This document shows, piece by piece, positions 8,878 to 41,145 of a stretch of 64,000 nt of DNA. The stretch's first letter is position 1. Every line of letters begins with the position of its first letter. A model generated the notes under the pieces. That model did not search any database, had not been told where the DNA came from, and was given only the letters and a program-made list of their open reading frames with translations. Source of the stretch: Minisyncoccota bacterium (GTDB taxonomy: Bacteria; Patescibacteriota; Minisyncoccia; Phycocordibacterales; CSBR16-193); assembly GCA_040905715.1 (NCBI GenBank), contig JBBDRA010000003.1:263142-327141 (forward strand), in the 5' to 3' direction. Made by a program: the position numbers and the translations under genes.

Positions 8878-10026
8878 ATGAAGCGGATATTTATATTATT
8901 TATAATTCTGGTGCTCGTTGGCACTGCGGCGTGGTACTTATTTGGAACAGCCCTGACAAACAATGCAGGCTCAAGTGCAACAAGTACGGACCAGCAGCAA
9001 GACGCTAACGGTGATTCAGTCCAGAGGGAAGCAATGCAGGTTATTGCAACAGATCTTGCGGTTCCGTGGGATATTGCCTTCTTGCCCGGCGAGCGAATGC
9101 TGGTAACTGAGCGTGGTGGGAGACTTGTGGAAATGGATCTTGATGGGGAAGATCAAGCACACATCTCAGTCGATGGTGTTGTTCAGAGCGGTGAAGGCGG
9201 ATTGCTTGGTATTGTTCTGCATCCTGAGTTTGAGCAAAATCAACAGATATATCTGTATATGGCCCAGGACACGGATAGAGGAGTGTTCGAGAATAAAGTT
9301 GTGCGCTATCGGTATAATAGTGGGGAGCTTTCTGAAGAGGAAGTGGTCATTGAGGGGATTGAAGGTGCGCAGTATCATGATGGCGGACGAATGGAGTTCG
9401 GCCCGGACGGTCTGCTTTATGTTACTACCGGCGATGCGGGACTGCGTGATCCGGCTCAAGATATAAATTCGCTTTCCGGTAAAACACTGCGTGTGCATCC
9501 GGACGGTTCAATACCGTCGAATAATCCATTTGAGAATGAAGTGTATTCTTACGGTCATCGAAATTCTCAAGGATTGGCCTGGGATGAGAGCGGACGCCTC
9601 TGGAGCACTGAGCACGGTCGTTCCGGTGTACAGAGTGGTATGGACGAGATCAATCTCATCGAGTCAGGCAGTAATTATGGCTGGCCGGAGATAGAGGGAG
9701 ATGAGACCGCAGAGGGGATGATTGCGCCGGCAGAACATTCCGGCCCGGATATTACCTGGGCTCCGGCGAGTGCTACCTACTGGGACGGCAGTATCTTCTT
9801 TGGCGGTCTAAGAGGGGCGGCAGTGTATGAGGCGGTGCTCGATGGTGAGGAGGTAACGGAGATCCGTCAACATTTCTTTGAGGAATTTGGTCGGATTCGC
9901 ACAACCAGACTTGGTCCGGACGGTTATTTCTACTTTACCACTTCAAATCGCGACGGCAGGGGCGAGTCTTCGACAGATGATGACCGCATAATACGTGTTG
10001 ATCCTGAGCAAGTCTTTCGTAACTAA
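8878..10026 (+). CDS. soluble PQQ-dependent glucose/sorbosone dehydrogenase-like beta-propeller (YliI-like aldose sugar dehydrogenase)
   Basis: Signal peptide. Motifs LAVPWDIAFLPGERMLVTERGGRL and GGLLGIVLHPEF, and a ..HGRSG.. propeller blade pattern typical of the GSDH family. Confidence 0.7.
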   Translation: MKRIFILFIILVLVGTAAWYLFGTALTNNAGSSATSTDQQQDANGDSVQREAMQVIATDLAVPWDIAFLPGERMLVTERGGRLVEMDLDGEDQAHISVDGVVQSGEGGLLGIVLHPEFEQNQQIYLYMAQDTDRGVFENKVVRYRYNSGELSEEEVVIEGIEGAQYHDGGRMEFGPDGLLYVTTGDAGLRDPAQDINSLSGKTLRVHPDGSIPSNNPFENEVYSYGHRNSQGLAWDESGRLWSTEHGRSGVQSGMDEINLIESGSNYGWPEIEGDETAEGMIAPAEHSGPDITWAPASATYWDGSIFFGGLRGAAVYEAVLDGEEVTEIRQHFFEEFGRIRTTRLGPDGYFYFTTSNRDGRGESSTDDDRIIRVDPEQVFRN

Positions 10027-13072: not shown

Positions 13073-14071
13073 ATGCAGCAGCACAGAAACGTAGTTAAAG
13101 TTGATCAGAAGCCAGCGTTCTCATTTAGTGATCGGGTGGTGAAGCTCCTTAAAAAATATGATCCGGAGAATGTGCACGGGGCACGACGACTTACCTTTGG
13201 AGGCGTCAGTGAAGGAAGGGATGTTTACAACATCACCGCACCGTTTGTATGGAACGGCAAGAAATATTTACTTGGACGAGTAGAAAGCCGTGACTCGGAG
13301 GTGGATACCGAGACGGTGCTTTTTGCAAATGAAGCAACTACAGGGGAATGGATTCGTGAGGAGGCGTTTGCATCACTTTCTCTGCAGGATCCTTTCATCG
13401 CCCAGATTCACGGCCAAGTCGTTATTGGCGGAGTGGAGGTGGCTTTCCGAGAGAAGACCCAGCGACTTACTTACCGGACGGTATTTTACCGAGGAGATAA
13501 CCCGTTTTCTGTAACTCGCTTTGCGCGTGGACCGTGGAAGATGAAGGGTGTGCGCCCGGTTGAGCTAACTGATGGAAGGATCGGTGTCTTTACACGACCG
13601 CAAGGAAGAATAGGTCGACGTGGCCGGATCGGCTTTACGATCATCGGATCACTAAATGAGCTGACTCCTCGACGACTCCTTGCTGCACCTCTACTCTCAA
13701 AGCAGTTTGCTCGCGGCGAGTGGGGCGGGGTGAATGAGGCCACGTGCATGAGCGATGGCAGAATACAAGTACTCGGTCATGTCGCCAGGTTCTCCCAAAG
13801 CGGTCTGCGACATTACTACCCGATCGCGTTTCTGTTTGACCCGTACTCAAGAGGAGTAAGTGATTTTAATATTATTGGATGTCGGAGTGACCTGCCGGCA
13901 GGGGAAACAAAGCGCGAGGATCTACATGATGTAGTGTATCCGGGCGGTATTGTTCGAGACGGGGAAGGGTCCGCGCGCCTGTATGTTGGAGTGAGTGACG
14001 CTGAGGCGGTAGAGGTGGTGATGAACGATCCGTTCACCGGATTAGAATCTCTCGTATTGAATCCAGCGTAA
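13073..14071 (+). CDS. hypothetical protein, possibly DUF1861 / GH43-like beta-propeller fold
   Basis: 332 aa soluble protein with repeated G-rich beta-strand motifs. Only a weak family recollection. Confidence 0.3.
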   Translation: MQQHRNVVKVDQKPAFSFSDRVVKLLKKYDPENVHGARRLTFGGVSEGRDVYNITAPFVWNGKKYLLGRVESRDSEVDTETVLFANEATTGEWIREEAFASLSLQDPFIAQIHGQVVIGGVEVAFREKTQRLTYRTVFYRGDNPFSVTRFARGPWKMKGVRPVELTDGRIGVFTRPQGRIGRRGRIGFTIIGSLNELTPRRLLAAPLLSKQFARGEWGGVNEATCMSDGRIQVLGHVARFSQSGLRHYYPIAFLFDPYSRGVSDFNIIGCRSDLPAGETKREDLHDVVYPGGIVRDGEGSARLYVGVSDAEAVEVVMNDPFTGLESLVLNPA

Positions 14072-20193: not shown

Positions 20194-22341
20194 GTGGGCA
20201 TAAAAATGGATCTATATAAGATATCTCAGAAGATTGCATGGGTTAGGACGGTAGCTATTATCAGTCTTCTAGCAATTTCTGGAACTCTTGTGCTTCCAGC
20301 TCACTCGATGCTAGCAGTAGACAACGCTTCAGAAAGTATTCACGTACAGTGGCCTACACAGGGCCGTTCTGATACGCTCGAGCATACATTTCTGGCGGAA
20401 GTTGAAGACATGAATACGGACAGCTACGAGCTGTACTGGTCTGTCGATGGCGGTGATCGTGTCGCTATGAGCGATCGGGATGGATTTGAACAGACTTGGA
20501 TCAATTTCAGTAGCTGGTACTGGAATGAGGACGGACCGTATGAACTACGTTTTATTGCCGTGGATGACGATGGCGATGAAATAGCTCGTACCGGACTGTC
20601 TCTCTATCGTGTTGAAGTTAATGGAAACAAAAGCAACATGGTGACCGATAGTGAGGTTAGTAGTACTAAACGAGAACCGATCGAGGTTGCTGATAGTGAT
20701 GAGGTTGTAGACAGGGAAGAGGAGGAAAGTGTAGACGATGAGAATAAGACAGAGAAAAGGGCCGAGTCAACGGACGATGAGGAAGTGAGTGAGGAAAGTG
20801 AGTTATCTGAAAATACAGATGTGAATGCTGGTGAGGATTCAGGTAGCGAATCTTCTGATGAGGAGTCAGAAGAGCTAACCAGTGAAGAGGCGAGTGCTAA
20901 CAGCGAAGAGAATAATGATGAAGAGAATGAATCACTCAGTGATCTAGAAGAGGAAAGCAATGACAACGAGTCCTCAAGTGACGACTCTGCTGACAAAAAA
21001 TCAGAAGAGTTAGATGAAGAGAGTGAAAATGATTCTGACATTTCTGAGTGGTTTACTATTACCGGTAACGTAGAAGATAGTGGTGTAGGTGATACTACCG
21101 AGGTTTCGTTTACTGTTGTGAACACCGGAGGCCCTGCAGAGGATACTATAGTTGACCTTGAGATCTTTAACGAAGAAGGCTCTCAGGTATACCAAGACTA
21201 TAAGATCGATCAGTCATTTGAAAATGATCAGGATCGAGACTATCAGTTCACATGGAAGCCTGATACCGCCGGCACATACAGTGCCTCAGTCGGTATCTTC
21301 AAGCCGTCATGGTCATCTATCTATAGCTGGCATGATGACATTGCCTCGTTCGAGATAGTTGATAACGGGTCATCGTCATCTGAAGAAAATGATGACGGTT
21401 CTGAATCAGTGGAGTCTAATGACTCAGATCCACAGGATCAGGACGACTTGTTGAACGGCGATAGTAGCGAAATCTCGATGAGCGAAAGTGACTTCTATAA
21501 TGAAGAAGGTCCTGCGGACCGACAGTACGATGAGTGGAAGGACGATCGACCGGAAGATGCTGAGTTGATCAAAAAAATCGTTGATCAGCCGATAGCCAAG
21601 TGGTTCGGTGGCTGGAACAACGATATTAAAAGCGACGTAGACGCGTATGTCTCAAAGGCACACAAGCAAGGAAAGACGCCGGTAATGGTGGCATACAATA
21701 TTCCTGATCGCGACTGTGGCTCGCACTCAGCCGGTGGATTAAGTAGCCTTTCTGAGTATGAGCAATGGATAAATGATTTTGCTGACGGTATTGATGGCCG
21801 TGATTCGATCGTTATCCTTGAGCCCGATGCTGCTGCGTTGACCAACTGTCTGGATGATAACGAACGTGAAGCACGCCTGATCGTTCTTGGTGAGGCGGCA
21901 GCAGTTCTTCGTGACCACGGAGCTAAGGCGTACATCGATGCAAGTCATGCAAACTGGCTTAGCGCTAATGATATGGCCGATCGACTGAAGAGTGCCGGTA
22001 TTGAAAAAGCAAGTGGGTTTGCATTGAATACCTCGAACTTTGTCTCTACCGAAAAGAATCTTCAGTACGGACGAGATATCTCAAAGCAGACAAACGGTGC
22101 GCATTTTGTCATTGACACGTCCCGAAACGGAAATGGTGCAGCGAGTGACAATGAGTGGTGTAATCCGGAAGGTCGCGCATTAGGTCAGAAACCGACCTTT
22201 GTCGACAACGACCCGCTCCTGGACGCATTTATTTGGACGAAGGTTCCGGGTGAGTCGGATGGTAAATGCAACGGAGGACCTGCTGCAGGTGTGTGGTGGC
22301 CAGAGTACGCACTCGGTCTTGCGGAGCGAGCTGATTGGTAA
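20194..22341 (+). CDS. secreted glycoside hydrolase family 6 (cellulase) with Ig-like N-domain and long acidic Ser/Glu/Asp-rich linker
   Basis: Signal peptide. C-terminal catalytic domain carries GH6 hallmarks: VAYNIPDRDCGS (PDRDC), VILEPDAAAL (EPDSL), YIDASHANWL (DAGHAGW), FIWTKVPGESDG. The middle ~250 aa are low-complexity acidic. Confidence 0.85.
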   Translation: MGIKMDLYKISQKIAWVRTVAIISLLAISGTLVLPAHSMLAVDNASESIHVQWPTQGRSDTLEHTFLAEVEDMNTDSYELYWSVDGGDRVAMSDRDGFEQTWINFSSWYWNEDGPYELRFIAVDDDGDEIARTGLSLYRVEVNGNKSNMVTDSEVSSTKREPIEVADSDEVVDREEEESVDDENKTEKRAESTDDEEVSEESELSENTDVNAGEDSGSESSDEESEELTSEEASANSEENNDEENESLSDLEEESNDNESSSDDSADKKSEELDEESENDSDISEWFTITGNVEDSGVGDTTEVSFTVVNTGGPAEDTIVDLEIFNEEGSQVYQDYKIDQSFENDQDRDYQFTWKPDTAGTYSASVGIFKPSWSSIYSWHDDIASFEIVDNGSSSSEENDDGSESVESNDSDPQDQDDLLNGDSSEISMSESDFYNEEGPADRQYDEWKDDRPEDAELIKKIVDQPIAKWFGGWNNDIKSDVDAYVSKAHKQGKTPVMVAYNIPDRDCGSHSAGGLSSLSEYEQWINDFADGIDGRDSIVILEPDAAALTNCLDDNEREARLIVLGEAAAVLRDHGAKAYIDASHANWLSANDMADRLKSAGIEKASGFALNTSNFVSTEKNLQYGRDISKQTNGAHFVIDTSRNGNGAASDNEWCNPEGRALGQKPTFVDNDPLLDAFIWTKVPGESDGKCNGGPAAGVWWPEYALGLAERADW

Positions 22342-22411
22342 GAACTTCCTTGGGCAGATACTGCCAGTAAGTGGAGCTTGCTCCAACTGGGTTAGAAGGA
22401 AGTATTGACGC

Positions 22412-22445
22412 AAAAAACACTTCACCGATCTGGTGAAGTGTTTTC
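22412..22445. terminator. bidirectional terminator between GH6 gene and the glycan operon
   Basis: AAAAAA-acacttcacc-gatct-ggtgaagtgt-TTTT, a 10-bp perfect stem. Confidence 0.75.
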
Positions 22446-22492
22446 GTGTACAGTTTTTGTCTACTCAGTAGCTTACTTTTAAGCAGGAGGAT

Positions 22493-24016
22493 CTAGTTTA
22501 CTACCTGTGCTTCAACTTGTGGCGAATCATCATACCAATCCGGTACCTCGTATACATATAGCTCAAGGCCGGGCGAATACTCTTTACGATATATCTCTGT
22601 AAAATTATTATCAAAGTATCTCTTTACTTCTTCTTGGTATCCCTGATCGTAACTGAGTAGAAGCCAAATGCGCTCATGCCACGGTGCTGATTGGCGCATA
22701 ACAAGATTCATATCTTCTTCTGAAAATGGCGGAAGCTCTTGTCCGCGGTACCTCTCCCACGGGGGAATCATGTAAACGCCGGCATGCCCTTTGTAGTAGT
22801 AGTCAAATGGATATACTGAGAATGAAGCAGACAGAACCACCATATCACGAGCTGTTACTTCTTTATTGATGTCTGCAACTGCTTCACGATAATTTTCTCG
22901 AACCGGGGTTTCAGGATGGTATGCCTGAATAGTGAGGGTTGAAATCATTAGAAAAACAAGGGCAATCTGGACAGTAGTTGAGAGAGGGCGGGCATAATTA
23001 ATAACAATCCAGGCAACGAACAGGAAGATCGGCATGACTGCGAGCACCATGTAACGGGAAAGAAAGATCGGAGTGATCAGGATGCTTACCAAAAACACAA
23101 TCGCAACCGGTAAGATAAAACCAACTAAGAGATAAGAGGTTACCGGTGATGTTGAGCGTTGATTGCGTAGTGCGAAGAATCCGGCCAGAGCAATAAGCGG
23201 CCAAAGTGAGACAATCATTGAGTTTATTGGGTCCGGTTGAAATCCAAAGAAAAAATGGGAAAAAACATTGAAGAGGTTCACCGGTGTCGGCGTAACGAGG
23301 AATGGTTGTGATCCAACACCACCATCTACACCCATAAATACATAAAGGAGCCAGGGAGAAAACGCAAGAACAACGACCAGTGCCGACGCCAGAAAAGACA
23401 AAAATGCTCCTGAATGAAATTGCTTCTGATTGAAGAAGAAATATACTGCTTGAACCAACAGAACAAACGAAAAGAAGTAGTGGGTGTATATGCCGATAAT
23501 AGCGATCAGTGTATAGCATGCCCAAACCCAGACCGGCTGCTTGCGCCACAGTCTCAGATAAAAATAATGACTCAGAGTGGTAAGGAGAGCAAAAAGTGTG
23601 TACATGCGGACCTCGTTACCAAACCAGTTCATGAAAGGGGAGATGGTGAAAAGAGTGGTTGCAAACAAACCAGTTGCCCGATTGTACGCGATCTCTCCCA
23701 GCTTATAGAGTGCCGGTATGGTTAGCAGGAAGAAGAGGAGGGACAAGATTCGTCCGTTAACTACCGTTGGCTCCAGTACGGATTGCCAGACATGTAGAGT
23801 TAGGTGATAGGCGGGAACATGTACATTGTCAGACAGTATTTTGATGATCTCTCGAGGACTTTGGCTCGTTTGCCATAAGCTTTGCGCTTCATCGAGACGT
23901 ATTCCTTCGTATAGAAAGAATATATGTGATACTGCTGCTGCAAACACCACAAGCGTGATAAGCGTAAGGAGTGTTGTTTTTTCTGAAATATGTGATGATC
24001 GGTCGGTCGGTAGCAT
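22493..24016 (-). CDS. GT-C fold membrane glycosyltransferase, ArnT/PMT-like (GT39/GT83, PMT_2 domain)
   Basis: 507 aa polytopic protein. First periplasmic loop has LDEAQSLW (DE motif), followed by a PMT_2-like TM pattern. Last gene of the 5-gene minus-strand operon. Confidence 0.7.
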   Translation of the reverse strand: MLPTDRSSHISEKTTLLTLITLVVFAAAVSHIFFLYEGIRLDEAQSLWQTSQSPREIIKILSDNVHVPAYHLTLHVWQSVLEPTVVNGRILSLLFFLLTIPALYKLGEIAYNRATGLFATTLFTISPFMNWFGNEVRMYTLFALLTTLSHYFYLRLWRKQPVWVWACYTLIAIIGIYTHYFFSFVLLVQAVYFFFNQKQFHSGAFLSFLASALVVVLAFSPWLLYVFMGVDGGVGSQPFLVTPTPVNLFNVFSHFFFGFQPDPINSMIVSLWPLIALAGFFALRNQRSTSPVTSYLLVGFILPVAIVFLVSILITPIFLSRYMVLAVMPIFLFVAWIVINYARPLSTTVQIALVFLMISTLTIQAYHPETPVRENYREAVADINKEVTARDMVVLSASFSVYPFDYYYKGHAGVYMIPPWERYRGQELPPFSEEDMNLVMRQSAPWHERIWLLLSYDQGYQEEVKRYFDNNFTEIYRKEYSPGLELYVYEVPDWYDDSPQVEAQVVN

Positions 24017-24028
24017 ATGATGAGATGA

Positions 24029-25678
24029 TTATGAGTTTGAGTGTGGTCCGCGGCCCCCCTGATCTGTTGATGCAAAAGAAGCAGATGGATTTGGAGCACC
24101 ATGTACTATTTGAATGCGCCGTCGTGGTCTATTGCTCCAGCGACGAAAAGGTTGCTTGAACCAGTTAATCGCGCTTCTCCTCTGGGCCGGTGCGGCAGCG
24201 TATATGAAGGGAATAAATACACTCACATAAATAGTTGTCCAAGCAATGTTGTTCATGATGGATGGCGAAAGACCTTCGCGACTTATTCCGACAACTATTG
24301 CAATAGCCGCCAATGTTATGTACAAGATCTGAGGAAGCGCTAGGTATAAGAAGTTTCCATTGAGTGCTTTTTTTGAGGTGACAGCGAATACACTTTTGTG
24401 TCGTAAGAGGGCTGAGGCTAAAGCTGAGAGATGTATGTTGAACATACTTATTGAGAAAGCAAGCGATCCAAAGGTAAATGAATAGTTGCTCGCGCGTTGG
24501 ATCGTGTAAAGCGTGGTTATGATGTAAGGTAGAAATATTAGTGCGAGGGTCATTGTGGCAACATCGAATGGAACTATTCCAAAAAAGAGGTAGATCAAAG
24601 GTATAAGCGCAAAGGCGATCACGATGATCCCGGATAAGAAGTAAGAGACCGAGGAGAGATACAGTATTCGCTGACGAAAGGTAAGACCGCGACAGAAAAC
24701 AAGATTGTATCGGAAAATAATATCAAGCGCTCCTCGCGCCCAGCGGTGTTGCTGTTTGTAATAGGAGAAAAAATCCTCCGGCGCAAGCCCTTCTGCTAGC
24801 ACTTTCGGCACGTAGATCGATTTCCAACCCTGTTGATGGAGGAACATACCGGTTGCAAGGTCTTCCGCGATACTTTCTTCGCACATTCCTCCGATCTTTT
24901 CGAGTGCGCTACGGCGGATCACCATGTTTGTGCCGCATAGCGTTGTTGCGTTGAGTCGGTCTTTTCCTCGCACGATCGGTCCGTAGAATAATTGTTGTTG
25001 CGCCCAGGCAACTCTGGTAATAAAGCTAAGTCCCGCGTTGTAATAGAATTGCGGTGTCTGAATATACGCTACATTTGGATCGGCACAGTACGGCATGGTT
25101 TGAGTTAAAAAATCGGTGTGTGGTTGGTAGTCGGCATCAAAAACAACAATGAAAGGGGCATGGGTGTGCCTAAGTCCGTTATTAATATTTCCAGCCTTGG
25201 CACCACCTGGCGTTTTTCTAGTAATGCAGGAAATGCCGCATTCGTAGGCAAGACGTTCGATGTCTTGCCAATTATCTTTACCTGCAACGTAGCCGTCATT
25301 TAAAATAGTGATCGAAAAATTCGGATAGACCATTGCCTTGGTCGCAAGAACAGTTCCGCGAACGGTTTCAATCGGTTCTCCGGCTACTGTGATAAATATG
25401 TCTACAGGCGGGGTAAAAGATGCATTTTTATAGTGATGCACTTTTTTCCCATACACTGTGTACAGGAAAGTTAGTGATTGCCATAAGAAATAAAGTTGCC
25501 CGATCACCAGGACCGTGAAAAGCCAACCACTTGAATATGGCAGCCAAAACGCAATAATGACAAAGTAACTGATCGCCAAGAGTGTATTAATGAGTACAAG
25601 CCAGTAGGGTACGTGTGAGTCACGCAGGAATTGCTTGTCGTCTGGTCGAAACGGTTGTGGGGTAGTGGCTGATGTCAT
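24029..25678 (-). CDS. processive family-2 glycosyltransferase, cellulose-synthase-like (BcsA/Csl/HAS superfamily)
   Basis: VDIFITVAGEP (D), KAGNIN, VVFDADYQP (DxD), AEDLATGM (TED-like), QQHRWARG (QxxRW). Two N-terminal and ~4 C-terminal TM helices. No convincing PilZ domain. Confidence 0.8.
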   Translation of the reverse strand: MTSATTPQPFRPDDKQFLRDSHVPYWLVLINTLLAISYFVIIAFWLPYSSGWLFTVLVIGQLYFLWQSLTFLYTVYGKKVHHYKNASFTPPVDIFITVAGEPIETVRGTVLATKAMVYPNFSITILNDGYVAGKDNWQDIERLAYECGISCITRKTPGGAKAGNINNGLRHTHAPFIVVFDADYQPHTDFLTQTMPYCADPNVAYIQTPQFYYNAGLSFITRVAWAQQQLFYGPIVRGKDRLNATTLCGTNMVIRRSALEKIGGMCEESIAEDLATGMFLHQQGWKSIYVPKVLAEGLAPEDFFSYYKQQHRWARGALDIIFRYNLVFCRGLTFRQRILYLSSVSYFLSGIIVIAFALIPLIYLFFGIVPFDVATMTLALIFLPYIITTLYTIQRASNYSFTFGSLAFSISMFNIHLSALASALLRHKSVFAVTSKKALNGNFLYLALPQILYITLAAIAIVVGISREGLSPSIMNNIAWTTIYVSVFIPFIYAAAPAQRRSAINWFKQPFRRWSNRPRRRIQIVHGAPNPSASFASTDQGGRGPHSNS

Positions 25679-26934
25679 GATGAAGAAGGGTACGATGTTA
25701 CGAGTGCTGTGTAATTTGGAAGTAGCTCATTGTAAAGACCGACACTAAACCACCGCCAATTTGTACCGTAGTAGCCAGGATCATCTTTCCAGGCATACCA
25801 TGTTGGGTTATAAAGATTTATCATCTTTTCTGTATATATTTCTTCGGCACTTTCTGGATCGGCGACCATAAAATAGCCCAGTGTTCCCGCGTACATTGAA
25901 GCGGATTCAAAGTTATCAATGATCGTGCCGTCATGACCATAGGAGGCCTGAAGCTTTTTTTCTGATCTCCATTGAGTTCCTAAAAAATCCATTTTTTCCA
26001 GAAGTTCTTTTGATCGCTCGTCCTGAAACCACTGCCAGTCAAGAGCAAGTCGCCACGGTGTTCGAAGAGCTTCAAAACCAAAGTTAGTAGTGAGATCAGG
26101 ATTATCAGATGCTATGATCTCGCCGGTGGTAGTATCTATCTCGATCCAATCAGGGGGAAGAACGGCGCTCGTCTCTGTATTGAGCGGTTGCTCCATTGAT
26201 CTCTCAATAATTTCGTAAGAATGTGAGGCCAGATCGTTCCAGCGGTGTTCCGGATCCTCATCTATCTGCGCAAATATTTTATAGGCGTAGGGAGCTAGGT
26301 ATGACGGGTTCACTATCACTGAGTTTTTCGGTAGCGTTTTTTCAACGTTGTTTGCTAAAAGATACGGGTCGCCATTGATCACGATCACTTCCTTGTTCCA
26401 GATATCAGTTATTACTTGGCGTGCCTCTATAAGGTACTGTTCGTCTTGCCATCTACCATAGGCGAGTGCGAGCGCAAGAGCAATATCCGTGTCGGCATCA
26501 CTAGCTGTATTGTGGCCACCATGCTCATCAAGAACACCGTAGGATCCGTCTTCTCGTTGTCCGAAAAGCCAGCTGAAGAGGTGGTCTTCGCCGTCTCGGC
26601 GTAAGTTATCTTTCGTCCAACGCCAGTTATTGTCAAAGGTTTCTTTATCATCCATCCAGACAGCTCTGAGCATGGTATAGCTTTGACCTTCTGATGTCGT
26701 AATATTTCCACGTTCGCGATCGAGGGTTCGATGAGTTCCTGCTTCTAAGTAGTCGTTCTTGTAGTTTTCCCAGAGACCGTTCATAACATCACGATTAGAG
26801 TAGATAATCGTGTTGTTGTATTGTAAAAAGTCCGTGAGGTTGAATATCGTATTTATGATCACAAAAATACCGATGAGAAACCCGAGCATCGTGATCGTAA
26901 CAGTGAGCTTTTTTTGTTTCGGGGTCATTCCCAT
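25675..26934 (-). CDS. glycoside hydrolase family 8 endoglucanase (BcsZ-like), N-terminal membrane anchor
   Basis: Catalytic TTSEGQSYTMLRAV. GH8 signature ASDADTDIALALALAYGRW. Stop overlaps the start of the downstream GT2 (ATGA). Start set at the ATG complement of 26932-26934. Confidence 0.85.
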   Translation of the reverse strand: MGMTPKQKKLTVTITMLGFLIGIFVIINTIFNLTDFLQYNNTIIYSNRDVMNGLWENYKNDYLEAGTHRTLDRERGNITTSEGQSYTMLRAVWMDDKETFDNNWRWTKDNLRRDGEDHLFSWLFGQREDGSYGVLDEHGGHNTASDADTDIALALALAYGRWQDEQYLIEARQVITDIWNKEVIVINGDPYLLANNVEKTLPKNSVIVNPSYLAPYAYKIFAQIDEDPEHRWNDLASHSYEIIERSMEQPLNTETSAVLPPDWIEIDTTTGEIIASDNPDLTTNFGFEALRTPWRLALDWQWFQDERSKELLEKMDFLGTQWRSEKKLQASYGHDGTIIDNFESASMYAGTLGYFMVADPESAEEIYTEKMINLYNPTWYAWKDDPGYYGTNWRWFSVGLYNELLPNYTALVTSYPSSS

Positions 26935-26944
26935 AGAAGTATGA

Positions 26945-27286
26945 TTAAACAGCTTGATCGTTGCCGGCGATGATACGCCTCTCTGATTCACGGGCGCGCT
27001 CAGCGGCTGCGTAGTAGATAACAAGGTTGCGAACGTAAATTAATAGAGCAAGGCCCTGTCCCGCGATAAACACAATATCAACGCGGTAGATAGCGTAAAC
27101 CAAGATCATAGCCGCTCCGGCGATCGACAGGTACCAAAATGAGAGCGGCACGACAGTTTCCCTGGCTCGTTCGCTGGCGATCCACTGAACAATGAACCGT
27201 AAAAAGAACACGAATTGAGCCCCAAATCCGAAGAGCACCCAGGGATTAGACAGTTCAGAGAGAATGTAGGTAATAATGTTTGACAT
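26945..27286 (-). CDS. LAB_N (lipid-A-biosynthesis N-terminal domain)-like small membrane protein, putative polyprenyl-P-sugar flippase partner of GtrB-like GT2
   Basis: FGAQFVFFLRFIVQWIASERARETVVPLSFWYLSIAGAAMILVYAIYRVDIVFIAGQGLALLIYVRNL matches the LAB_N consensus pattern. It sits 5 nt downstream of the GT2. Confidence 0.7.
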   Translation of the reverse strand: MSNIITYILSELSNPWVLFGFGAQFVFFLRFIVQWIASERARETVVPLSFWYLSIAGAAMILVYAIYRVDIVFIAGQGLALLIYVRNLVIYYAAAERARESERRIIAGNDQAV

Positions 27287-27291
27287 AAGAT

Positions 27292-28242
27292 CTATTGGTG
27301 GACAATGGTACGAATGTGGTAGTTCATCTGATTATTTGTTTTGAAAAAACTTCTAATATTTAGATCTATAAGTAGACCCATCATAAAGAACTGAGCTCCC
27401 ATAAGTATGAGAAAAATACCAAGGAGAGGCCAGATTCGATTAGCTATATCTACTCCAAAAATTATTCGTTCAATCGCCATCCACGCGATAAAAAGTCCCC
27501 CCAGAAAAATAGATAATAAACCAACCACACCGAAAAGATGTAATGGCCGCGCCCCAAACCTATTCCAGAATCCTATGGCAAGCATATCCACAAGACTTTT
27601 AAAACCGCGTCGTAAATTATCGTATTTACTTACACCGTGTATTCGTGGATAGTGATTAACAACAACTTCGGTGACAGCGAATCCTCGAGCTGAGAGTAGT
27701 GCTGGTATGAATCGGTGGGTTTCTCCGTACAGATCAAGATTGGAAAAACATTCACGTCGATATATTTGGAGCGCACATCCTGAGTCATGGATTGTGTCAT
27801 TGAAGATCACTTTACGTAAAGCGTTAGCTGTTCGTGATGTAATTCTTTTAGATAATGTGTCGTTACGTTTCTTGCGCCATCCCACTACCACATCGTAGCC
27901 CTCGTCTATTTTTACAAGAAGTTTTGAAATATCAGCCGGATCATTCTGAAGGTCGCCATCTAAGCTTATAATAAGGTCGCCACGTGAATTCTTGATACCC
28001 GCATCCATAGCAGCGGTTTTACCATAATTACCGCGAAATTGAATAAAGGTGAGCGGTTTTAAATGTTTACAAACTTCAGCGGTTCCATCGGTCGAACCGT
28101 CATCAATAAAGATCAACTCAAAATGTCGATCAAGTTTAGATAATGACTCTATAAGGCGATTGTAGAGATCAATTATGTTATCGCGTTCGTTGTATAACGG
28201 CACAACAACGGAGAGATCTATGTGCTGTATAAGTTGATTCAT
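27292..28242 (-). CDS. polyprenyl-phosphate glycosyltransferase, GT2 (GtrB/ArnC/DPM1-like) with C-terminal TM helices
   Basis: LSVVVPLYNERDNI, IFIDDGSTDGT, GNYGKTAAMDAGI and LDGDLQNDP motifs. Two C-terminal TM segments. Confidence 0.85.
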   Translation of the reverse strand: MNQLIQHIDLSVVVPLYNERDNIIDLYNRLIESLSKLDRHFELIFIDDGSTDGTAEVCKHLKPLTFIQFRGNYGKTAAMDAGIKNSRGDLIISLDGDLQNDPADISKLLVKIDEGYDVVVGWRKKRNDTLSKRITSRTANALRKVIFNDTIHDSGCALQIYRRECFSNLDLYGETHRFIPALLSARGFAVTEVVVNHYPRIHGVSKYDNLRRGFKSLVDMLAIGFWNRFGARPLHLFGVVGLLSIFLGGLFIAWMAIERIIFGVDIANRIWPLLGIFLILMGAQFFMMGLLIDLNIRSFFKTNNQMNYHIRTIVHQ

Positions 28243-28530
28243 GGTGAATAGAGTGTTAAAAATTTGCTTTTTCTGTCTGGTTTGGGAACCAGATTAGCAG
28301 AAGAAATGGCTGATAATACAATGTATGATAGATGCGCACTGTCACTACTAAAACACCGCATATAGGAATGCTCTACTGAACGAGATGTGCCTTTGGATGC
28401 GCGCTGTATCTATCAGTATAGACACCAGGAGTGAGACACTATTACAGGAACATCCGCATATGTCCTTAATGTGCTGACGAAAGGTTCGTATTTCTCATCC
28501 ACAGGCAGGGAGGTGACGGGGGCTTGAGGT

Positions 28531-29130
28531 TTGATAGTATTAAACGAAGTATGGCGTTATTATCTCACCCGACTTTTATATCTATCTATGAATAATCCAT
28601 TCGAATCGCCGGACGTTAACCTATCGAAGGGGCAACAGGAGAACTCTCAGTCCAATGAAGGCGCAGAAGAAGGTGCAGAGAGCCGAGAACAGGTCAAGGA
28701 AGAAGTAAGCTTGCGACTCGTGGGTGAGTATGATGAGCGCGCTAAAAATCAACAAACTGAGATGGAGCAAAACCCAACGCTTCGCTTGAGAGGTGCTGAG
28801 CAAGATGTTGAGGCGGTGTGCGACATGGTAGCGTGTCAGGCAGAGGTTGATCATGGGGTGATGAGGCAGATACTAGAAGAGCTACAGGCAGAGAATGATG
28901 CTAAGGATACAAATCAGATCGACTTTCTCTATGAAGTGGTGGCAGCGAAATTCGAAGAAACCCTACGCCGAAGGGAGGCCTTTGCTGAGATGCTCGCAGA
29001 CGTACAGCATCAGTTTCCTGCACTTGCCGACGAGCTTCGTAAGCGATTTTCAGACATTGACGCTATGTATACCAGAAGCGAGGAGGCGTTTGAGAAAAGT
29101 AACGTTACTACGAATAAGAAGGCAGCATAA
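28531..29130 (+). CDS. hypothetical acidic soluble protein
   Basis: No recognisable motifs. Stop overlaps the start of the GH15-like gene (TAATG). The true start may be the internal MNNPF. Confidence 0.4.
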   Translation: MIVLNEVWRYYLTRLLYLSMNNPFESPDVNLSKGQQENSQSNEGAEEGAESREQVKEEVSLRLVGEYDERAKNQQTEMEQNPTLRLRGAEQDVEAVCDMVACQAEVDHGVMRQILEELQAENDAKDTNQIDFLYEVVAAKFEETLRRREAFAEMLADVQHQFPALADELRKRFSDIDAMYTRSEEAFEKSNVTTNKKAA

Positions 29131-30194
29131 TGACTGACGCACGCACGGAAGCACAACCACATATTGAAAACTTGCATGCACTCAGGGCACCCTCGGGCCT
29201 CTTTTTGGCGTCCGCTCAAGATGTCTCTACCGGTTATGACAAGGCTTGGTTGCGGGATAATTTTTACATGTCACTGGCTTTTGAGCGGATAGGTGACTGG
29301 GAGACAGTTGAGCAAACTTGGCGAGGTATAGTAAGTATTTTTACCAAGCATAAGGATAAGCTCAGTTGGGCTACGAAAAACAAACCGTATGAAAGCTGGC
29401 AGTACATTCACGCACGATATAATCCCGAAACATTTGATGAGTATTGGGAGGAGTGGGGGAACAAGCAGAATGACGCAGTGGGCGCGATACTTTTCGCGCT
29501 GTGTACGTGTAATAAGGCCGGTGTTGATATTTTGAATACAAAGGAAGATCAGGAAGTGGTTCAGTTATTGGTGAATTATCTCAATACAATTGAATACTGG
29601 CATGATCCGGACAACGGTGTCTGGGAAGAGTACGAAGAAGTTCACGCATCCTCGATCGGTCCATGTGTGGCTGCGCTTAAGCTTCTGCGTGAATATGACT
29701 GGATCGAGATCCCCGAGGATCTGATTGAAAAAGGCGAGCAGGCACTTGCTAACCTTCTGCCCCGCGAATCGGAGAGCAAGTACTGCGATCTCGCGCTTCT
29801 TTCTCTTATATATCCTTATGATCTGTTGGATCATGAAATAGTCGATACTATTTTGAATAATTTAGAGTATCAGTTCGACCGAGACAGAGGCGTTATTCGC
29901 TACAAGAGTGACCACTATTACAATAAGAATAAAGATGGCCATGCTGAGGAAGCAGAATGGACTATGGGCTTTCCGTGGCTGTCCATCATTTACAGCAAGC
30001 GAGGAGATCTTGAAAAAGCAAAGCGGTATCTCGATAAAACTCGAGAGGTGATGACTGATGATAAGAAGTTACCGGAACTTTATTATTCGAACTCTTCCAC
30101 GCCCAATGAGAATATTCCGCTTGGTTGGTCGGAAAGCTTGTTCGTTGTTGCTCTTATAGAGTATGAGCAGGCTGCTGGTAAGACTGAAAAATAG
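29130..30194 (+). CDS. GH15-like (glucoamylase/glucodextranase-type) six-hairpin glycoside hydrolase
   Basis: GYDKAWLRDNFY (Y..WxRD), DNGVWEE (GLWEE catalytic motif), GVIRYKSDHYY (GRYxxDxY) and EAEWTMGFPWLS (GxPW). Confidence 0.6.
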   Translation: MTDARTEAQPHIENLHALRAPSGLFLASAQDVSTGYDKAWLRDNFYMSLAFERIGDWETVEQTWRGIVSIFTKHKDKLSWATKNKPYESWQYIHARYNPETFDEYWEEWGNKQNDAVGAILFALCTCNKAGVDILNTKEDQEVVQLLVNYLNTIEYWHDPDNGVWEEYEEVHASSIGPCVAALKLLREYDWIEIPEDLIEKGEQALANLLPRESESKYCDLALLSLIYPYDLLDHEIVDTILNNLEYQFDRDRGVIRYKSDHYYNKNKDGHAEEAEWTMGFPWLSIIYSKRGDLEKAKRYLDKTREVMTDDKKLPELYYSNSSTPNENIPLGWSESLFVVALIEYEQAAGKTEK

Positions 30195-37372: not shown

Positions 37373-37382
37373 CCCCTGGCAC

Positions 37383-37424
37383 TACGGTGTGCCAGGGGGG
37401 TACTTCTCTTTTTTCGTTTCTTCG
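37383..37424 (+). terminator. terminator after DUF2905 gene
   Basis: cccctggcac / gtgccagggg 10-bp stem. T6 tract begins 7 nt after the stem. Confidence 0.5.
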
Positions 37425-37539: not shown

Positions 37540-38721
37540 TTAGTGCTGAGTTATTTCCATGAGTCTCTTGAATTTTTCATCGCTTTCTTGTGTGCCCGGG
37601 GAGCCTGGTTTTATGCCGTAGCAACCACATCCTACGGCAAGATCGGCAATAAAATCTTCTGTTGTTTCAATGTAGTTATGATCTATGATACAGCGAAGGG
37701 ATGCATTGTGAGCGGATCGAATAACAGCCAACATGTCCGAAAGTGTGGGTGAATTATTTGGTGAAATAGAAACAGCGGAAATACCTTGCTCCTCCTGAGC
37801 TACTTGTAAAATATCACTATTACTTTCTAACACCTCTCCGCCTACGATATCGAGGTCTTCGTGTCGCTGTTTCATAATATGAAATTCATTGAATTCATCG
37901 GCAGTGAACGGATCCTCGACGGAGCTAACGTGAAATCTTTCAATTAGATGGTCGTAGTAGTCGTGTAATTGCTGTGCGGATAGACTCTGTTGGTCGAGAT
38001 GATACTTTCCGTCTTTGAAGAATTTGTTTGCATTAGCGTTAAGAGCGAGCTGTATTTTTACCTCGGGAAAGGCTTCTGCAACACCTTCCAAAATTAACTC
38101 TAACGCTTCCTGGTTGAATTCGATAGAGTGCGGTGAGTATGCGCCGTCGCTTCCGATAGGAAGGTCGTTTTCTTGAGTTTTGAGTCTGAGTACAGTTCCG
38201 AGGGCTGTTTTTATGTCACGTATAACTTTGTGTGAGCGTCTGACGTTATCTGTTTGTGGGATAATATAAAATGATTGAAAGGCGAGTGGAGATGCACCCT
38301 TACTACCCCCTGACACAAGACTTGAGTAGAGTAAGGGTATCGGTGATCCACCATTCGTTACTGAAATATTCCTGAGATGCTCATAAAGTGGAACATCGAG
38401 TACCTGGGCTGCGGTTTTTGCGGCCGCAATACTGATGCTGCTAAGGGCGGCGACAGTATCTGCAGAATTGTCTGTGGTACTTAAGACCTGCTTTAAAATA
38501 TCGTCCACTTCTTGTTGATGTGCAGCATCGATACCGGCGAGTGCGTTTGTTAGTTGTTCTTGGAGCTTGTTAGTTGTTTCGTTGTTGCTCGGAATGTCTT
38601 CTGCAGCTGCGGTCTGGTACATATTTGAACCTTCAGTCGTATGTATTGTCGCAGCAAGAATAGAAGATCCGTTGCTCGAGGTTTTTTGTAACTCAATTGT
38701 ATTTATGATGGCATTGCTCAT
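37540..38721 (-). CDS. enolase-superfamily protein, divergent; catalytic/metal residues appear substituted (possible pseudo-enolase)
   Basis: Clear enolase blocks: VPLYEHL, SVEDPF (SIEDPF), ..TEDFIADLAVG.. (ETEDxTIADLAVG), FFKDGKYHL. By-eye alignment places Ser/Lys at the GGEHA Glu, Asn at the AMDxAASE Asp, and SPNN in place of KxNQIG. Confidence 0.55.
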   Translation of the reverse strand: MSNAIINTIELQKTSSNGSSILAATIHTTEGSNMYQTAAAEDIPSNNETTNKLQEQLTNALAGIDAAHQQEVDDILKQVLSTTDNSADTVAALSSISIAAAKTAAQVLDVPLYEHLRNISVTNGGSPIPLLYSSLVSGGSKGASPLAFQSFYIIPQTDNVRRSHKVIRDIKTALGTVLRLKTQENDLPIGSDGAYSPHSIEFNQEALELILEGVAEAFPEVKIQLALNANANKFFKDGKYHLDQQSLSAQQLHDYYDHLIERFHVSSVEDPFTADEFNEFHIMKQRHEDLDIVGGEVLESNSDILQVAQEEQGISAVSISPNNSPTLSDMLAVIRSAHNASLRCIIDHNYIETTEDFIADLAVGCGCYGIKPGSPGTQESDEKFKRLMEITQH

Positions 38722-38833
38722 GATGTGTACATAGTATCACAGCAAAGACGTATCGGAATGAAGACTTGTTCACATATGGGTAATTTATTTAACCCTTTCG
38801 TGTCTTACAATAGAGTGAGATAAGAGTGACAAT

Positions 38834-39739
38834 ATGATTGATACTCACCCGGTACTTATTTTTGGAGGAGGTGAGATGGGGCAGGCGCTCACTCATCTTG
38901 TTAATGTGAACGAATCGCCAGACCAGGCGATCGTTTTTGATGTAAATAAAAATAGGTCAAAATGCAGTGCTGACGAATTGCGGGAGGTGCTGCCTAAAAG
39001 TCGGATCATTTTTATTTCGGTTCCGTCTCATGCGATCGAACATGTAACATCAGTAATAAATGAATTACGTAGCACTGATCAGCCGGTAGTGGCTCTTACG
39101 AAAGGAATGACCCGTGAAAGTGATCGATTCACCGGTGAGGTTCTTCGTGAGGAACTTGGCGAGAGCGTGGCGGTTCTTACGGGACCAATGCTCGCTGAAG
39201 AGATCAGCGGTGGCCTACCGACTCAGGCGCTGTGTGCCGGAAGCAAAGACGCGTATCAAGAGCTGAGAGATGTTTTGCCTTTGTCTCAATTTGAACTTGA
39301 ATACACTCCGGACATTATTGGTGCTTCTGTATGTGGTTTGCTTAAAAATATATACAGTATCGGATTCGGTATTGCTGACGGACTTGAGCTGGGCGGTAAT
39401 TTTCGAGGCTTGCTAGCGACGACGGCGTTGTCTGAGATGATGAGTATTGTGGAGCGTTTTGGAGGTGAGCGAGCGACCGCACTTACAGCTGCCGGAATCG
39501 GTGATCTGATCGCGACCGTATCGAGTTCATACTCAAACAATTATGCTGCCGGTCTTATGTTGGCACGCCGTGGGCATACTGACATTGTCAGTGAAGGTCG
39601 TTGTTCAATGAAGTCGTTTGCGCGTCGTTTTCCTGAGGAATCTTCTTTTGCCCTGCTTTCAAATGTAAAACGGATCATCCTAGAAGAGCAGTCAGTCGAT
39701 CACTTTCGTGACTATCTTATGCGTACTGCTCATGTCTGA
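38834..39739 (+). CDS. gpsA: NAD(P)H-dependent glycerol-3-phosphate dehydrogenase
   Basis: LIFGGGEMGQAL Rossmann motif, SVPSHAIEHV, LTKGM, LTGPMLAEEISGGLPT, and GLLKNIYSIGFGIADGLELGGN, closely parallel to GpsA blocks. Confidence 0.85.
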   Translation: MIDTHPVLIFGGGEMGQALTHLVNVNESPDQAIVFDVNKNRSKCSADELREVLPKSRIIFISVPSHAIEHVTSVINELRSTDQPVVALTKGMTRESDRFTGEVLREELGESVAVLTGPMLAEEISGGLPTQALCAGSKDAYQELRDVLPLSQFELEYTPDIIGASVCGLLKNIYSIGFGIADGLELGGNFRGLLATTALSEMMSIVERFGGERATALTAAGIGDLIATVSSSYSNNYAAGLMLARRGHTDIVSEGRCSMKSFARRFPEESSFALLSNVKRIILEEQSVDHFRDYLMRTAHV

Positions 39740-40913
39740 TCATATATTTCTTGTTCTTGATAGTGGGGTGAGCGAGGCTAAGGCGTATGTGTTCGATGCA
39801 CATGATTCGGTGTTGGGACGTGCGTATCAGCCCATCTCAAAGACACGACCGAACAGTGGGTGGGTTGAGCAAGATCCGGACGAATTGATCAGCGCGGCTC
39901 GTGCAGCGCTTTCTGTCGCTGTCGATCAAAGCAACGTGTCCCCGAATACCATTATTTCTATGGGTATAGCAAATCAACGGGAGACTGTTGTAGCGTGGGA
40001 CCTTGCTACAGGCGAGGCTTTAGCCCCGGCAATATTGGGGGATGACTCCCGTACGCAAGGGTGGTGTGAACAATTCTATGGGGATGTGGCGGATAGAATA
40101 CGAGAAAAAACAGGTCTGCTTGTACGCGCCACGTTTTCAGCATCAAAAATACGCTGGTTGCTGGATATGAACAGCGACGTTGTTAAAGCCGAAGAGGAAG
40201 GGAAATTGGCGGTCGGTACGGTTGATTCGTGGTTGCTGTTTAAACTTTCAGAGGAAGGTATGCATATGTGTGACATGACCAACGCTTCGCGCACCCTTCT
40301 GTACAATATTCATGGTCTTACTTGGGACCGTGAGCTTCTGGAATTATTCGGTATCGATCCGGAAATACTCCCATCGGTTCGATCATCTCGAGCACTGTAC
40401 GGCACTCTGAGATCTGATATATGTGGCTGTCCGGCTCCGATAGAAGTTATGTGTGGTGATCAACAGGCGAGCATGGCGGCAGCTGGTTTTACCTCGCATA
40501 TGACCAAGGTCTCCTATGGCTCAAAGACACATGTAATGCAGACGCTCGGGGATGAGTTTTTACTTGAAGACTCTTTTCTTACGACACTGACCCCGGATGC
40601 ACCGATCGGTTCAGTGCAGTATGCGCTTGAAGCAAGCATCTGTGACACTGGTGAAAAAGTAACAGACGCTCTTGGTCATGAAGAACAACTTAAAAAAGTG
40701 CTGGATGATATCGTACGGCAAGTAGATTCTTCTCTGTCAGACCTGCCGTACCCAACAGACACGCTGATCGTTGACGGCGGCATTACTCAGAATGATCATT
40801 TAATACGATTACAAGCAGATGTAACGGGCGCCGAGGTCGTTCGACAGCCGATCTATGACGGAGCTGCGCTTGGAGTAATGAGACTTCTTTCATCTATTCA
40901 CCATGGCGCTTGA
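39732..40913 (+). CDS. FGGY-family carbohydrate kinase, glycerol-kinase-like (shortened)
   Basis: LVLDSG...GWVEQDPDEL, GIANQRETVVAWD, VGTVDSWLLFKL, CDMTNASRTLLYNIHGLTWD, GDQQASM, VDGGITQND all match GlpK blocks. It is about 110 aa shorter than canonical GlpK. Overlaps the gpsA stop. Confidence 0.7.
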   Translation: MSDHIFLVLDSGVSEAKAYVFDAHDSVLGRAYQPISKTRPNSGWVEQDPDELISAARAALSVAVDQSNVSPNTIISMGIANQRETVVAWDLATGEALAPAILGDDSRTQGWCEQFYGDVADRIREKTGLLVRATFSASKIRWLLDMNSDVVKAEEEGKLAVGTVDSWLLFKLSEEGMHMCDMTNASRTLLYNIHGLTWDRELLELFGIDPEILPSVRSSRALYGTLRSDICGCPAPIEVMCGDQQASMAAAGFTSHMTKVSYGSKTHVMQTLGDEFLLEDSFLTTLTPDAPIGSVQYALEASICDTGEKVTDALGHEEQLKKVLDDIVRQVDSSLSDLPYPTDTLIVDGGITQNDHLIRLQADVTGAEVVRQPIYDGAALGVMRLLSSIHHGA

Positions 40914-41145
40914 ATGTAATTACAGCTATAAAGACCTCTACAAGGCTGCGTTTGGTAAAGAGCCAACGTTCGCTGATTTAAAAGTACTGAAGAATCTACC
41001 TTACCCGACTCGAGAGAGAGTGGTTCAAAACTGGATCGAGCGGGCTGGATGGATCAGTAAAACGGTGCACAGTGATGACGGCAAGTCCTATCGTATGTTC
41101 AAGCCACCAAGTGCTCTTGATGCTGATGATGAAGAGGTGTTGTAA
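40903..41145 (+). CDS. hypothetical small protein
   Basis: 80 aa ORF overlapping the glpK-like stop. No motifs. Confidence 0.3.
   Translation: MALECNYSYKDLYKAAFGKEPTFADLKVLKNLPYPTRERVVQNWIERAGWISKTVHSDDGKSYRMFKPPSALDADDEEVL

Follow-up and report, generated by a model that had tools for sequence, protein, structure and literature searches.

Enolase is among the most conserved enzymes and its presence or absence is scored as a matter of routine when the metabolism of Candidate Phyla Radiation (CPR)/Patescibacteria genomes is reconstructed. A gene in a 64,000-nucleotide stretch of DNA from a Minisyncoccota bacterium (assembly GCA_040905715.1, contig JBBDRA010000003.1, positions 263,142 to 327,141; the whole analysed stretch is referred to here as the window) raises the question of whether a protein that plainly belongs to the enolase family can have ceased to be an enolase, and of what it would then be kept for. 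The gene lies at positions 37540..38721 on the reverse strand and is an intact open reading frame (ORF) of 393 amino acids with an ATG start. An earlier note on this DNA had suggested that its product would be a repurposed, non-catalytic enolase paralogue if the genome has a canonical eno as well. Its active-site positions have for the most part been replaced, the gene has been maintained by selection, and the reading that we favour, with fair rather than high confidence, is that of an enolase-derived pseudoenzyme (hereafter the pseudo-enolase) retained for a non-enolase role, probably in binding.

Homology, fold and active-site residues

The homology to enolase that the earlier note had recognised was borne out, far beyond chance, by matches to Pfam, NCBIfam and Protein Data Bank (PDB) entries. 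The Pfam Enolase_C match (1e-40) spanned residues 129-391, the Enolase_N match was confined to residues 48-116, corresponding to the C-terminal half of that domain, and PDB enolases were matched at best at 1e-42. The NCBIfam eno equivalog TIGR01060 was matched at 9e-52 with 176 bits, which is below its curated cutoff of 300; the two orthologues described below, with 179 and about 129 bits, also fell under it. Models of related families were not reached either, with 18.2 bits for Pfam MR_MLE_C (cutoff 29.4), ~16 bits for ManD and GalD (cutoffs 430-550) and, for the archaeal enolase-like PRK08350 (NF006223), 40 bits over an N-domain fragment only against a cutoff of 624. The structure prediction that the earlier note had proposed gave a confident enolase fold: the AlphaFold2 (AF2) model had a predicted local distance difference test score (pLDDT) of 93.1 and a predicted template modelling score (pTM) of 0.91, based on a 71-sequence alignment, and template modelling (TM) scores of 0.86-0.91 against the E. 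coli, Legionella, M. jannaschii, yeast and human enolases. The two-domain architecture of enolase (N-terminal alpha+beta domain and C-terminal TIM-like barrel) is therefore present according to Pfam matches to both domains, the AF2 model and the TM scores.

To call active-site residues, the protein was aligned pairwise with HMMER against the enolases of yeast, Candida, Campylobacter and M. jannaschii, and further alignments were made with MAFFT in yeast ENO1 numbering; in the ENO1 reference sequence all twelve reference positions land on the expected motifs. Eleven of these positions could be aligned with the window protein, and eight have been lost: yeast H159 is K141, E168 is S150, E211 is D192, D246 is N228, D320 is G295, K345 is S320, R374 is N349 and S375 is Y350. 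The three that are kept are E295 (E269), H373 (H348) and K396 (K371). In the alignments the degenerate positions fall within a barrel segment of residues 141-354 (37660..38301, reverse strand). Catalytic loop L1 (yeast 36-60, SGASTG..EA..LRD), which carries the Mg(II) ligand Ser39, has been replaced by a segment ~18 residues shorter, and the MAFFT alignment places the site of the lost loop at about residues 40-47 (38581..38604, reverse strand).

The earlier note had listed three replacements from a by-eye alignment. Both the change of a metal-ligand Asp to Asn (D246N, at N228) and the replacement of the catalytic Lys (K345S, at S320) held up in the HMMER and MAFFT alignments, as did the retention of the HxxxETED His (H348) and the QIKTGS Lys (K371). 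The Glu reported as replaced in a GGEHA motif had been mislabelled: the change in GGSHAG is that of His159 to Lys, and the lost Glu168 lies nine residues further on, where QEF has become QSF. Equivalents of E168, D246 and K345 are absent from the proper alignment for which the note had called, and this alignment also revealed losses that were not on its list, namely E211D, D320G, R374N, S375Y and the L1 deletion.

Among ~15 billion proteins, the only orthologues were P0002 (59% identity) and P0003 (54%), both Paceibacterota "hypothetical proteins". These two are degenerate in the same manner: their signatures read ARADNEGTHGDK and SRADDQGVHGQR, where canonical enolases have SHEEDEDKHRSK. Across the resulting trio, the general base K345 is S, T or V and the general acid E211 is D in every member. 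In loop L2, E168 is S, A and A, and H159 is K, R and R. At the substrate-binding positions, R374 is N/G/G, S375 is Y/D/Q and K396 is K/K/R, while H373 is kept. The SGASTG motif is missing from all three members, and in each of them the L1 segment is ~18 residues shorter. The Mg(I) triad D246/E295/D320, which is N228/E269/G295 in the window protein and N/E/G and D/Q/G in the orthologues, is not intact. Nor was the pattern of the wider superfamily (MR/MLE/MAL type) found, in which three carboxylates bind metal at the ends of barrel strands 3-5 and a conserved base abstracts the alpha-proton: only one of the first two ligand positions has a carboxylate, and the third is a Gly. Each protein of the trio has exactly three cysteines, all invariant (C344, C365 and C367 in the window protein); two of them form a GCGC motif that stands where canonical short CPR enolases have FGC.

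The catalytic base and acid have gone, as have the Ser39 loop, the residues that bind phosphate and two of the three Mg(I) ligands; these data support the loss of function as a conventional enolase that the earlier note had envisaged. The window protein lacks each sequence-level defining feature of the enolase equivalog and shares only the fold, which makes annotation as phosphopyruvate hydratase inappropriate.

Descent, selection and the shift of constraint

By distance, the nearest neighbours of the trio are canonical CPR enolases of ~400 amino acids, and in a tree rooted on the Erwinia enolase the trio was nested among these short forms (neighbour-joining only, with long-branch artefacts possible). 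Its stem was the longest internal branch of the tree, at 0.254 compared to a median of 0.015. Midpoint rooting was uninformative, since it placed the root on the long branch that leads to the trio itself. Identity to the yeast and Erwinia enolases was 22-28% for the trio versus 35-45% for the canonical short forms. The closest sequences, at 30-35% identity, are short enolases from other lineages of Minisyncoccia/Paceibacteria (for example P0004, P0005 and P0121), which share with the trio the two-domain fold, TDN after strand 2, the motif ADLA..GC.G(I/L)K.G.P and a short C-terminus. They differ in keeping all 12 key residues, in passing TIGR01060 (417 bits for P0004) and in lying in glycerate kinase-eno-PPDK operons, whereas the window protein keeps 3 of the 11 aligned key residues, has no L1 (Ser39 being the twelfth position) and is encoded beside gpsA and an FGGY kinase gene. 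On sequence grounds, these comparisons point to an origin from short CPR-type enolases, through a burst of change, after which purifying selection set in again.

The clade is very small. A trio-profile search of 1.84 billion representative proteins, run without a word index, gave 780 bits for P0001 and 237 for the next protein; the exact canonical signature is carried by 118 of the 149 further matches (8 of these lacking the Ser39 column only), and in the key-residue alignment the full canonical signature was present in nearly all of the 117 other matches. A DNA-pattern scan of the GTDB species genomes returned P0003's own contig only, and the same kind of scan found no clade member in the Joint Genome Institute (JGI) metagenomes. 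Every recovery of the three clade proteins traces to three metagenome-assembled genome (MAG) assemblies at NCBI or to the four runs SRR27977658, -61, -62 and -63 in Logan. The window protein is identical to MEX0672708.1, MEX0924530.1, MEX1087240.1 and MEX2563977.1 (NCBI "hypothetical protein WDZ82_01160", Candidatus Paceibacterota), and the identical protein was seen on seven contigs, which stem from one assembly at NCBI and no fewer than four sequencing runs. The P0003 contig is labelled as isolate LejiaA_56_15. The reach of the findings is limited accordingly to a clade of three sequences, from MAGs that were deposited together, one of them named as from Lejia; the source would be a tiny uncultured bacterium living in a high-altitude salt lake. 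The literature library searched contained no paper on the Lejia MAGs.

The three ORFs are each of full length and carry few indels, at pairwise identities of 54-63%. Pairwise non-synonymous divergence (dN) within the trio was 0.27-0.38, and synonymous divergence (dS) was saturated (2.2 or undefined), so that dN/dS can be stated as an upper bound only. The neighbouring gpsA and FGGY kinase genes gave similar dN values (0.21-0.28), whereas MgsA evolves more slowly (0.12). Since a frame of 393 codons and runs of 12-15 invariant residues have been kept at saturated synonymous divergence, the gene is not a neutral pseudogene; it is maintained by purifying selection.

The distribution of this constraint differs from that of canonical enolases. 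Invariant columns make up 46.5% of the trio's alignment and include just 5 of the 14 core active-site positions. By contrast, in three trios of canonical short CPR enolases matched for overall invariance (0.45-0.61), all 14 of these positions were invariant (Fisher p = 0.0006). Of 62 columns invariant in ten canonical enolases, 18 are preserved in all three clade members. Sliding-window conservation in the trio compared to the canonical control fell to 0.27 versus 0.80 at L1, to 0.27 versus 0.67 in the D246 region, and to 0.40 versus 0.87 in both the K345 loop and the H373 loop.

Conversely, three blocks are more constrained in the trio than in the control. An N-domain block of residues 61-75 (LAGIDAAHQQEVDDI; 38497..38541, reverse strand) is 0.87 invariant versus 0.47; a helix block of residues 165-182 (KVIRDIKTALGTVLRLKT; 38176..38229, reverse strand) reaches 0.87-0.93 versus 0.13-0.27; and a helix and strand block of residues 207-226 (LELILEGVAEAFPEVKIQLA; 38044..38103, reverse strand) 0.87 versus 0.07-0.13. 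In the AF2 model, block 165-182 falls in a helix of residues 160-182, and block 207-226 in a helix (203-217) and a strand (223-228). The invariant residues of the latter two blocks include polar ones, which hints at an interaction surface, making helices 165-182 and 207-226 candidates for a new one. Selection now preserves the fold together with a new set of residues, and the active site is no longer protected.

Possible roles of the pseudo-enolase

Homology, residue loss, purifying selection and a relaxed active site, which together mark a pseudoenzyme, are all found in the window protein, which is presumably inactive; the non-catalytic enolase put forward in the earlier note thus gains support from the residue losses in combination with upkeep by selection. 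The course of events that we envisage begins with short (~400 aa) canonical CPR enolases. A burst of divergence on the branch leading to a very small lineage of Paceibacterota would have removed K345, E168, H159, two of the three Mg(I) ligands, R374/S375 and the Ser39 lid loop, and would have shortened E211 to D. The two-domain fold has been kept, and selection has moved from the active site to helices 165-182 and 207-226 and to N-domain residues 61-75. The resulting protein would not interconvert 2-phosphoglycerate and phosphoenolpyruvate, and it would most likely act as a scaffold or regulator that binds another protein or, perhaps, a ligand.

Several points weigh against this reading. Polar residues of the pocket have been kept or conservatively replaced (D192, D270, E296, H348 and E352 are invariant, with K/R141, K/R371 and N/D228 paired with E/Q269), and a remodelled ligand or metal site in the pocket is possible on this basis. 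The synteny with gpsA and the FGGY kinase gene may simply reflect shared ancestry, and a clade defined by three sequences only makes the conservation statistics coarse.

The same pocket residues form the case for a neofunctionalised enzyme or small-molecule sensor, whose pocket would bind another three-carbon phosphate or acid, possibly tied to the glycerol-3-phosphate genes nearby. In support of this, the N228/E269 pair of two members is D228/Q269 in the third, which resembles an exchange preserving one acid and one amide, and the divergent layout with gpsA and the FGGY kinase is kept in all three genomes. However, the metal triad of the superfamily at the ends of strands beta3-5 is not intact (N/E/G), K345 has no conserved candidate base in its place (S/T/V), and positions 167, 168, 345, 374 and 375 vary among the orthologues, which is unusual for a catalytic site. 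In addition, constraint is strongest in helices that are set apart from the loops of the active site, and the synteny is weak evidence of a functional link because the three genomes are related. We regard this alternative as unlikely, while giving it more weight than any other.

The paralogue of the earlier note presupposes a canonical eno in another part of the genome. The window, a further 10 kb past its start and the contigs of the orthologues contained no second enolase and no other glycolytic gene; the search of the genome itself spanned ~74 kb, and the downstream edge added a 1.4-kb contig only. Enolase is patchy in the CPR and missing from some lineages (Jaffe et al. 2020, PMC7304191), which makes degeneration of a sole copy as plausible as the existence of a paralogue. 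The window protein may thus equally be the lineage's only eno descendant or a paralogue beside a canonical eno. In a bolder version of the former, the canonical enzyme has been lost, and its sole descendant has been recruited by the adjacent glycerol-3-phosphate module (GpsA and the truncated GlpK-like kinase), either to sense a ligand or as a subunit with a regulatory or scaffolding role. Such an arrangement seems to us improbable. If true, it would be, for bacteria, the first case of a core glycolytic enzyme turned wholesale into a non-catalytic component of lipid-precursor metabolism, and this in an ultra-small symbiont.

It is very improbable that the protein is the cell's working enolase, acting through a non-canonical catalytic arrangement. 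The retained fold, the fact that two of the three members still have E295, H373 and K396, and the lack of another enolase in the ~74 kb examined would be in keeping with this. Against it, K345, E168, H159, D246, D320, R374, S375 and the Ser39 lid are all lost, with replacements that differ between the orthologues, and the nearest canonical relatives lie in glycerate kinase-eno-PPDK operons, outside which the window gene is found. In yeast enolase the single changes K345A, E168Q or E211Q reportedly lower activity roughly 10^5-fold (Poyner et al. 1996), each being near-lethal for activity by itself. Equally hard to credit is a non-functional relic, be it a slowly decaying pseudogene or an annotation artefact: high divergence, the loss of catalytic residues and the reductive evolution of CPR genomes, among which enolase is patchy, would fit it, but three full-length, indel-poor ORFs at 54-63% identity despite saturated synonymous sites, blocks of 12-15 consecutive invariant residues, a confident fold prediction and the recurrence of the identical protein across several accessions, contigs and runs (as listed above) would not.

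A retained, non-catalytic pseudoenzyme has counterparts among eukaryotes. Inactive or residue-altered enolase homologues have been described as Arabidopsis ENO3 (PMC7479207), Bombyx BmEno2 and BmEnoC (PMC5237310) and Taenia solium TsEno4 (PMC6167496), and these resemble the pseudo-enolase in belonging to the enolase family without activity, or with altered metal or substrate residues, and in their presumed other roles. Unlike these proteins, which are paralogues beside active enolases, the pseudo-enolase is bacterial, derived from CPR enolase and of independent origin, and its degeneration is more extreme. No report of a bacterial pseudo-enolase was found in the literature library searched, in agreement with the earlier note's impression that such an enolase had not been described; for eukaryotes that impression does not hold. 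Moonlighting enolases (RNA degradosome, plasminogen-binding) likewise use the enolase fold in protein binding, and the E. coli enolase-RNase E structures 2fym and 5ohg were among the best structural matches. These are fully active enzymes, however, whereas the constrained helices 165-182 and 207-226 are specific to the lineage of the window protein, for which neither an RNase E-type partner nor a surface-export signal was identified.

Metagenomes also hold other degenerate enolase-like proteins (the P0077 group, P0087/P0118, P0166 and P0223), which resemble the trio in having metal-ligand or catalytic residues substituted. They are unrelated to it, and differ in keeping K345 and mostly E168/E211 too, and in scoring 323-497 bits on TIGR01060. 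Above the cutoff of 300, several of them are likely to be annotated automatically as phosphopyruvate hydratase. The substituted enolase-like proteins that we noted belong to several unrelated groups and comprise P0077, P0089, P0096, P0097, P0099, P0102 and P0111; P0087 and P0118; P0019 and P0065; and P0166, P0223, P0236 and P0184. The P0077 group shows D246N/D320S/H373Q/S375G, and in P0166 9 of the 12 key residues are changed.

If the pseudo-enolase is inactive, as its residues suggest, a Pfam-level "enolase" match in a CPR genome can be a catalytically dead derivative, and counting the window protein as an enolase would wrongly close lower glycolysis in a metabolic model. The practical value of the example is therefore one of caution for CPR metabolic reconstruction. 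Its conceptual value lies in being a clean natural case in which constraint, once the function had been lost, left the active site and presumably settled on a new surface, in a protein tractable enough for asking which non-glycolytic roles select for the enolase fold in bacteria.

Genomic neighbourhood and other observations

The neighbours of the pseudo-enolase are those named in the earlier note: DUF2905, gpsA and a short FGGY/GlpK-like kinase. The gpsA-like gene for an NAD(P)H glycerol-3-phosphate dehydrogenase (38834..39739, forward strand) is the divergent neighbour in all three genomes, as is, behind it, the kinase gene (39732..40913, forward strand; 393 aa from a conserved MSD start), whose start overlaps the gpsA stop by 8 nt. 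The kinase is ~100 residues shorter than typical glycerol kinases, scoring 310 bits on TIGR01311 against a cutoff of 590, with FGGY_C partly matched. Its 3' end is overlapped in all three genomes by a conserved 80-aa ORF (40903-41145, forward strand) with no Pfam match. The shared layout further includes an SNF-family transporter beyond gpsA and the kinase, and MgsA on the opposite side. Directly downstream of the pseudo-enolase, the gene differs by genome, being DUF2905, PaaX_M or PMSR.

The intergenic region that the pseudo-enolase shares with the divergent gpsA (38722..38833) contains short promoter-like motifs conserved in the three genomes; aligning it across them gave no convincing shared operator. 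At 37373..37398 on the reverse strand, ~140 nt 3' of the pseudo-enolase stop codon, a consensus scan alone picked out a terminator-like hairpin (10-bp stem with 8 G-C pairs and a T-rich tail), which is consistent with a monocistronic unit. This hairpin separates the convergent pseudo-enolase and DUF2905 genes and could work in both directions.

Positional orthology with canonical enolases was considered and rejected: the contexts of P0004, P0005 and P0008 differ, consisting of glycerate kinase-eno-PPDK or of unrelated genes. A metagenome scan with the FGGY kinase returned distant glpK loci only, at up to 41% identity. Two of these loci, L031 and L059, had an enolase nearby but were set aside, being of high GC content and of another layout (enolase variant, APH-like kinase, glpK); they provide no evidence on the pseudo-enolase. 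In these loci (L031 2059-5928 and L059 3498-7485) the enolase variant has SARSGETED (H373A) and PAGASRGS in place of SGASTG and lies beside a kinase-like gene of the APH family, while a full-length glpK runs divergently from the pair. This variant may represent a distinct enolase-like subfamily in a conserved cluster.

The window contains no tRNA genes, and its GC skew is positive in every 2-kb bin, which places the whole of it on one replichore. Two genes at 13073-14071 and 8878-10026, one matching DUF1861 very strongly (341 bits) and one encoding a soluble glucose/sorbosone dehydrogenase (GSDH, 277 bits), represent sugar-related functions in a region otherwise without glycolytic genes. A polysaccharide cluster at 20194-30194 comprises a 715-aa GH6 protein, a PMT_2-like glycosyltransferase, a cellulose-synthase-like GT2 protein (549 aa), GH8, a further GT2 and a GH15-like protein, and its pairing of cellulose-synthase-like GT2 with GH8 resembles bcsA/bcsZ.

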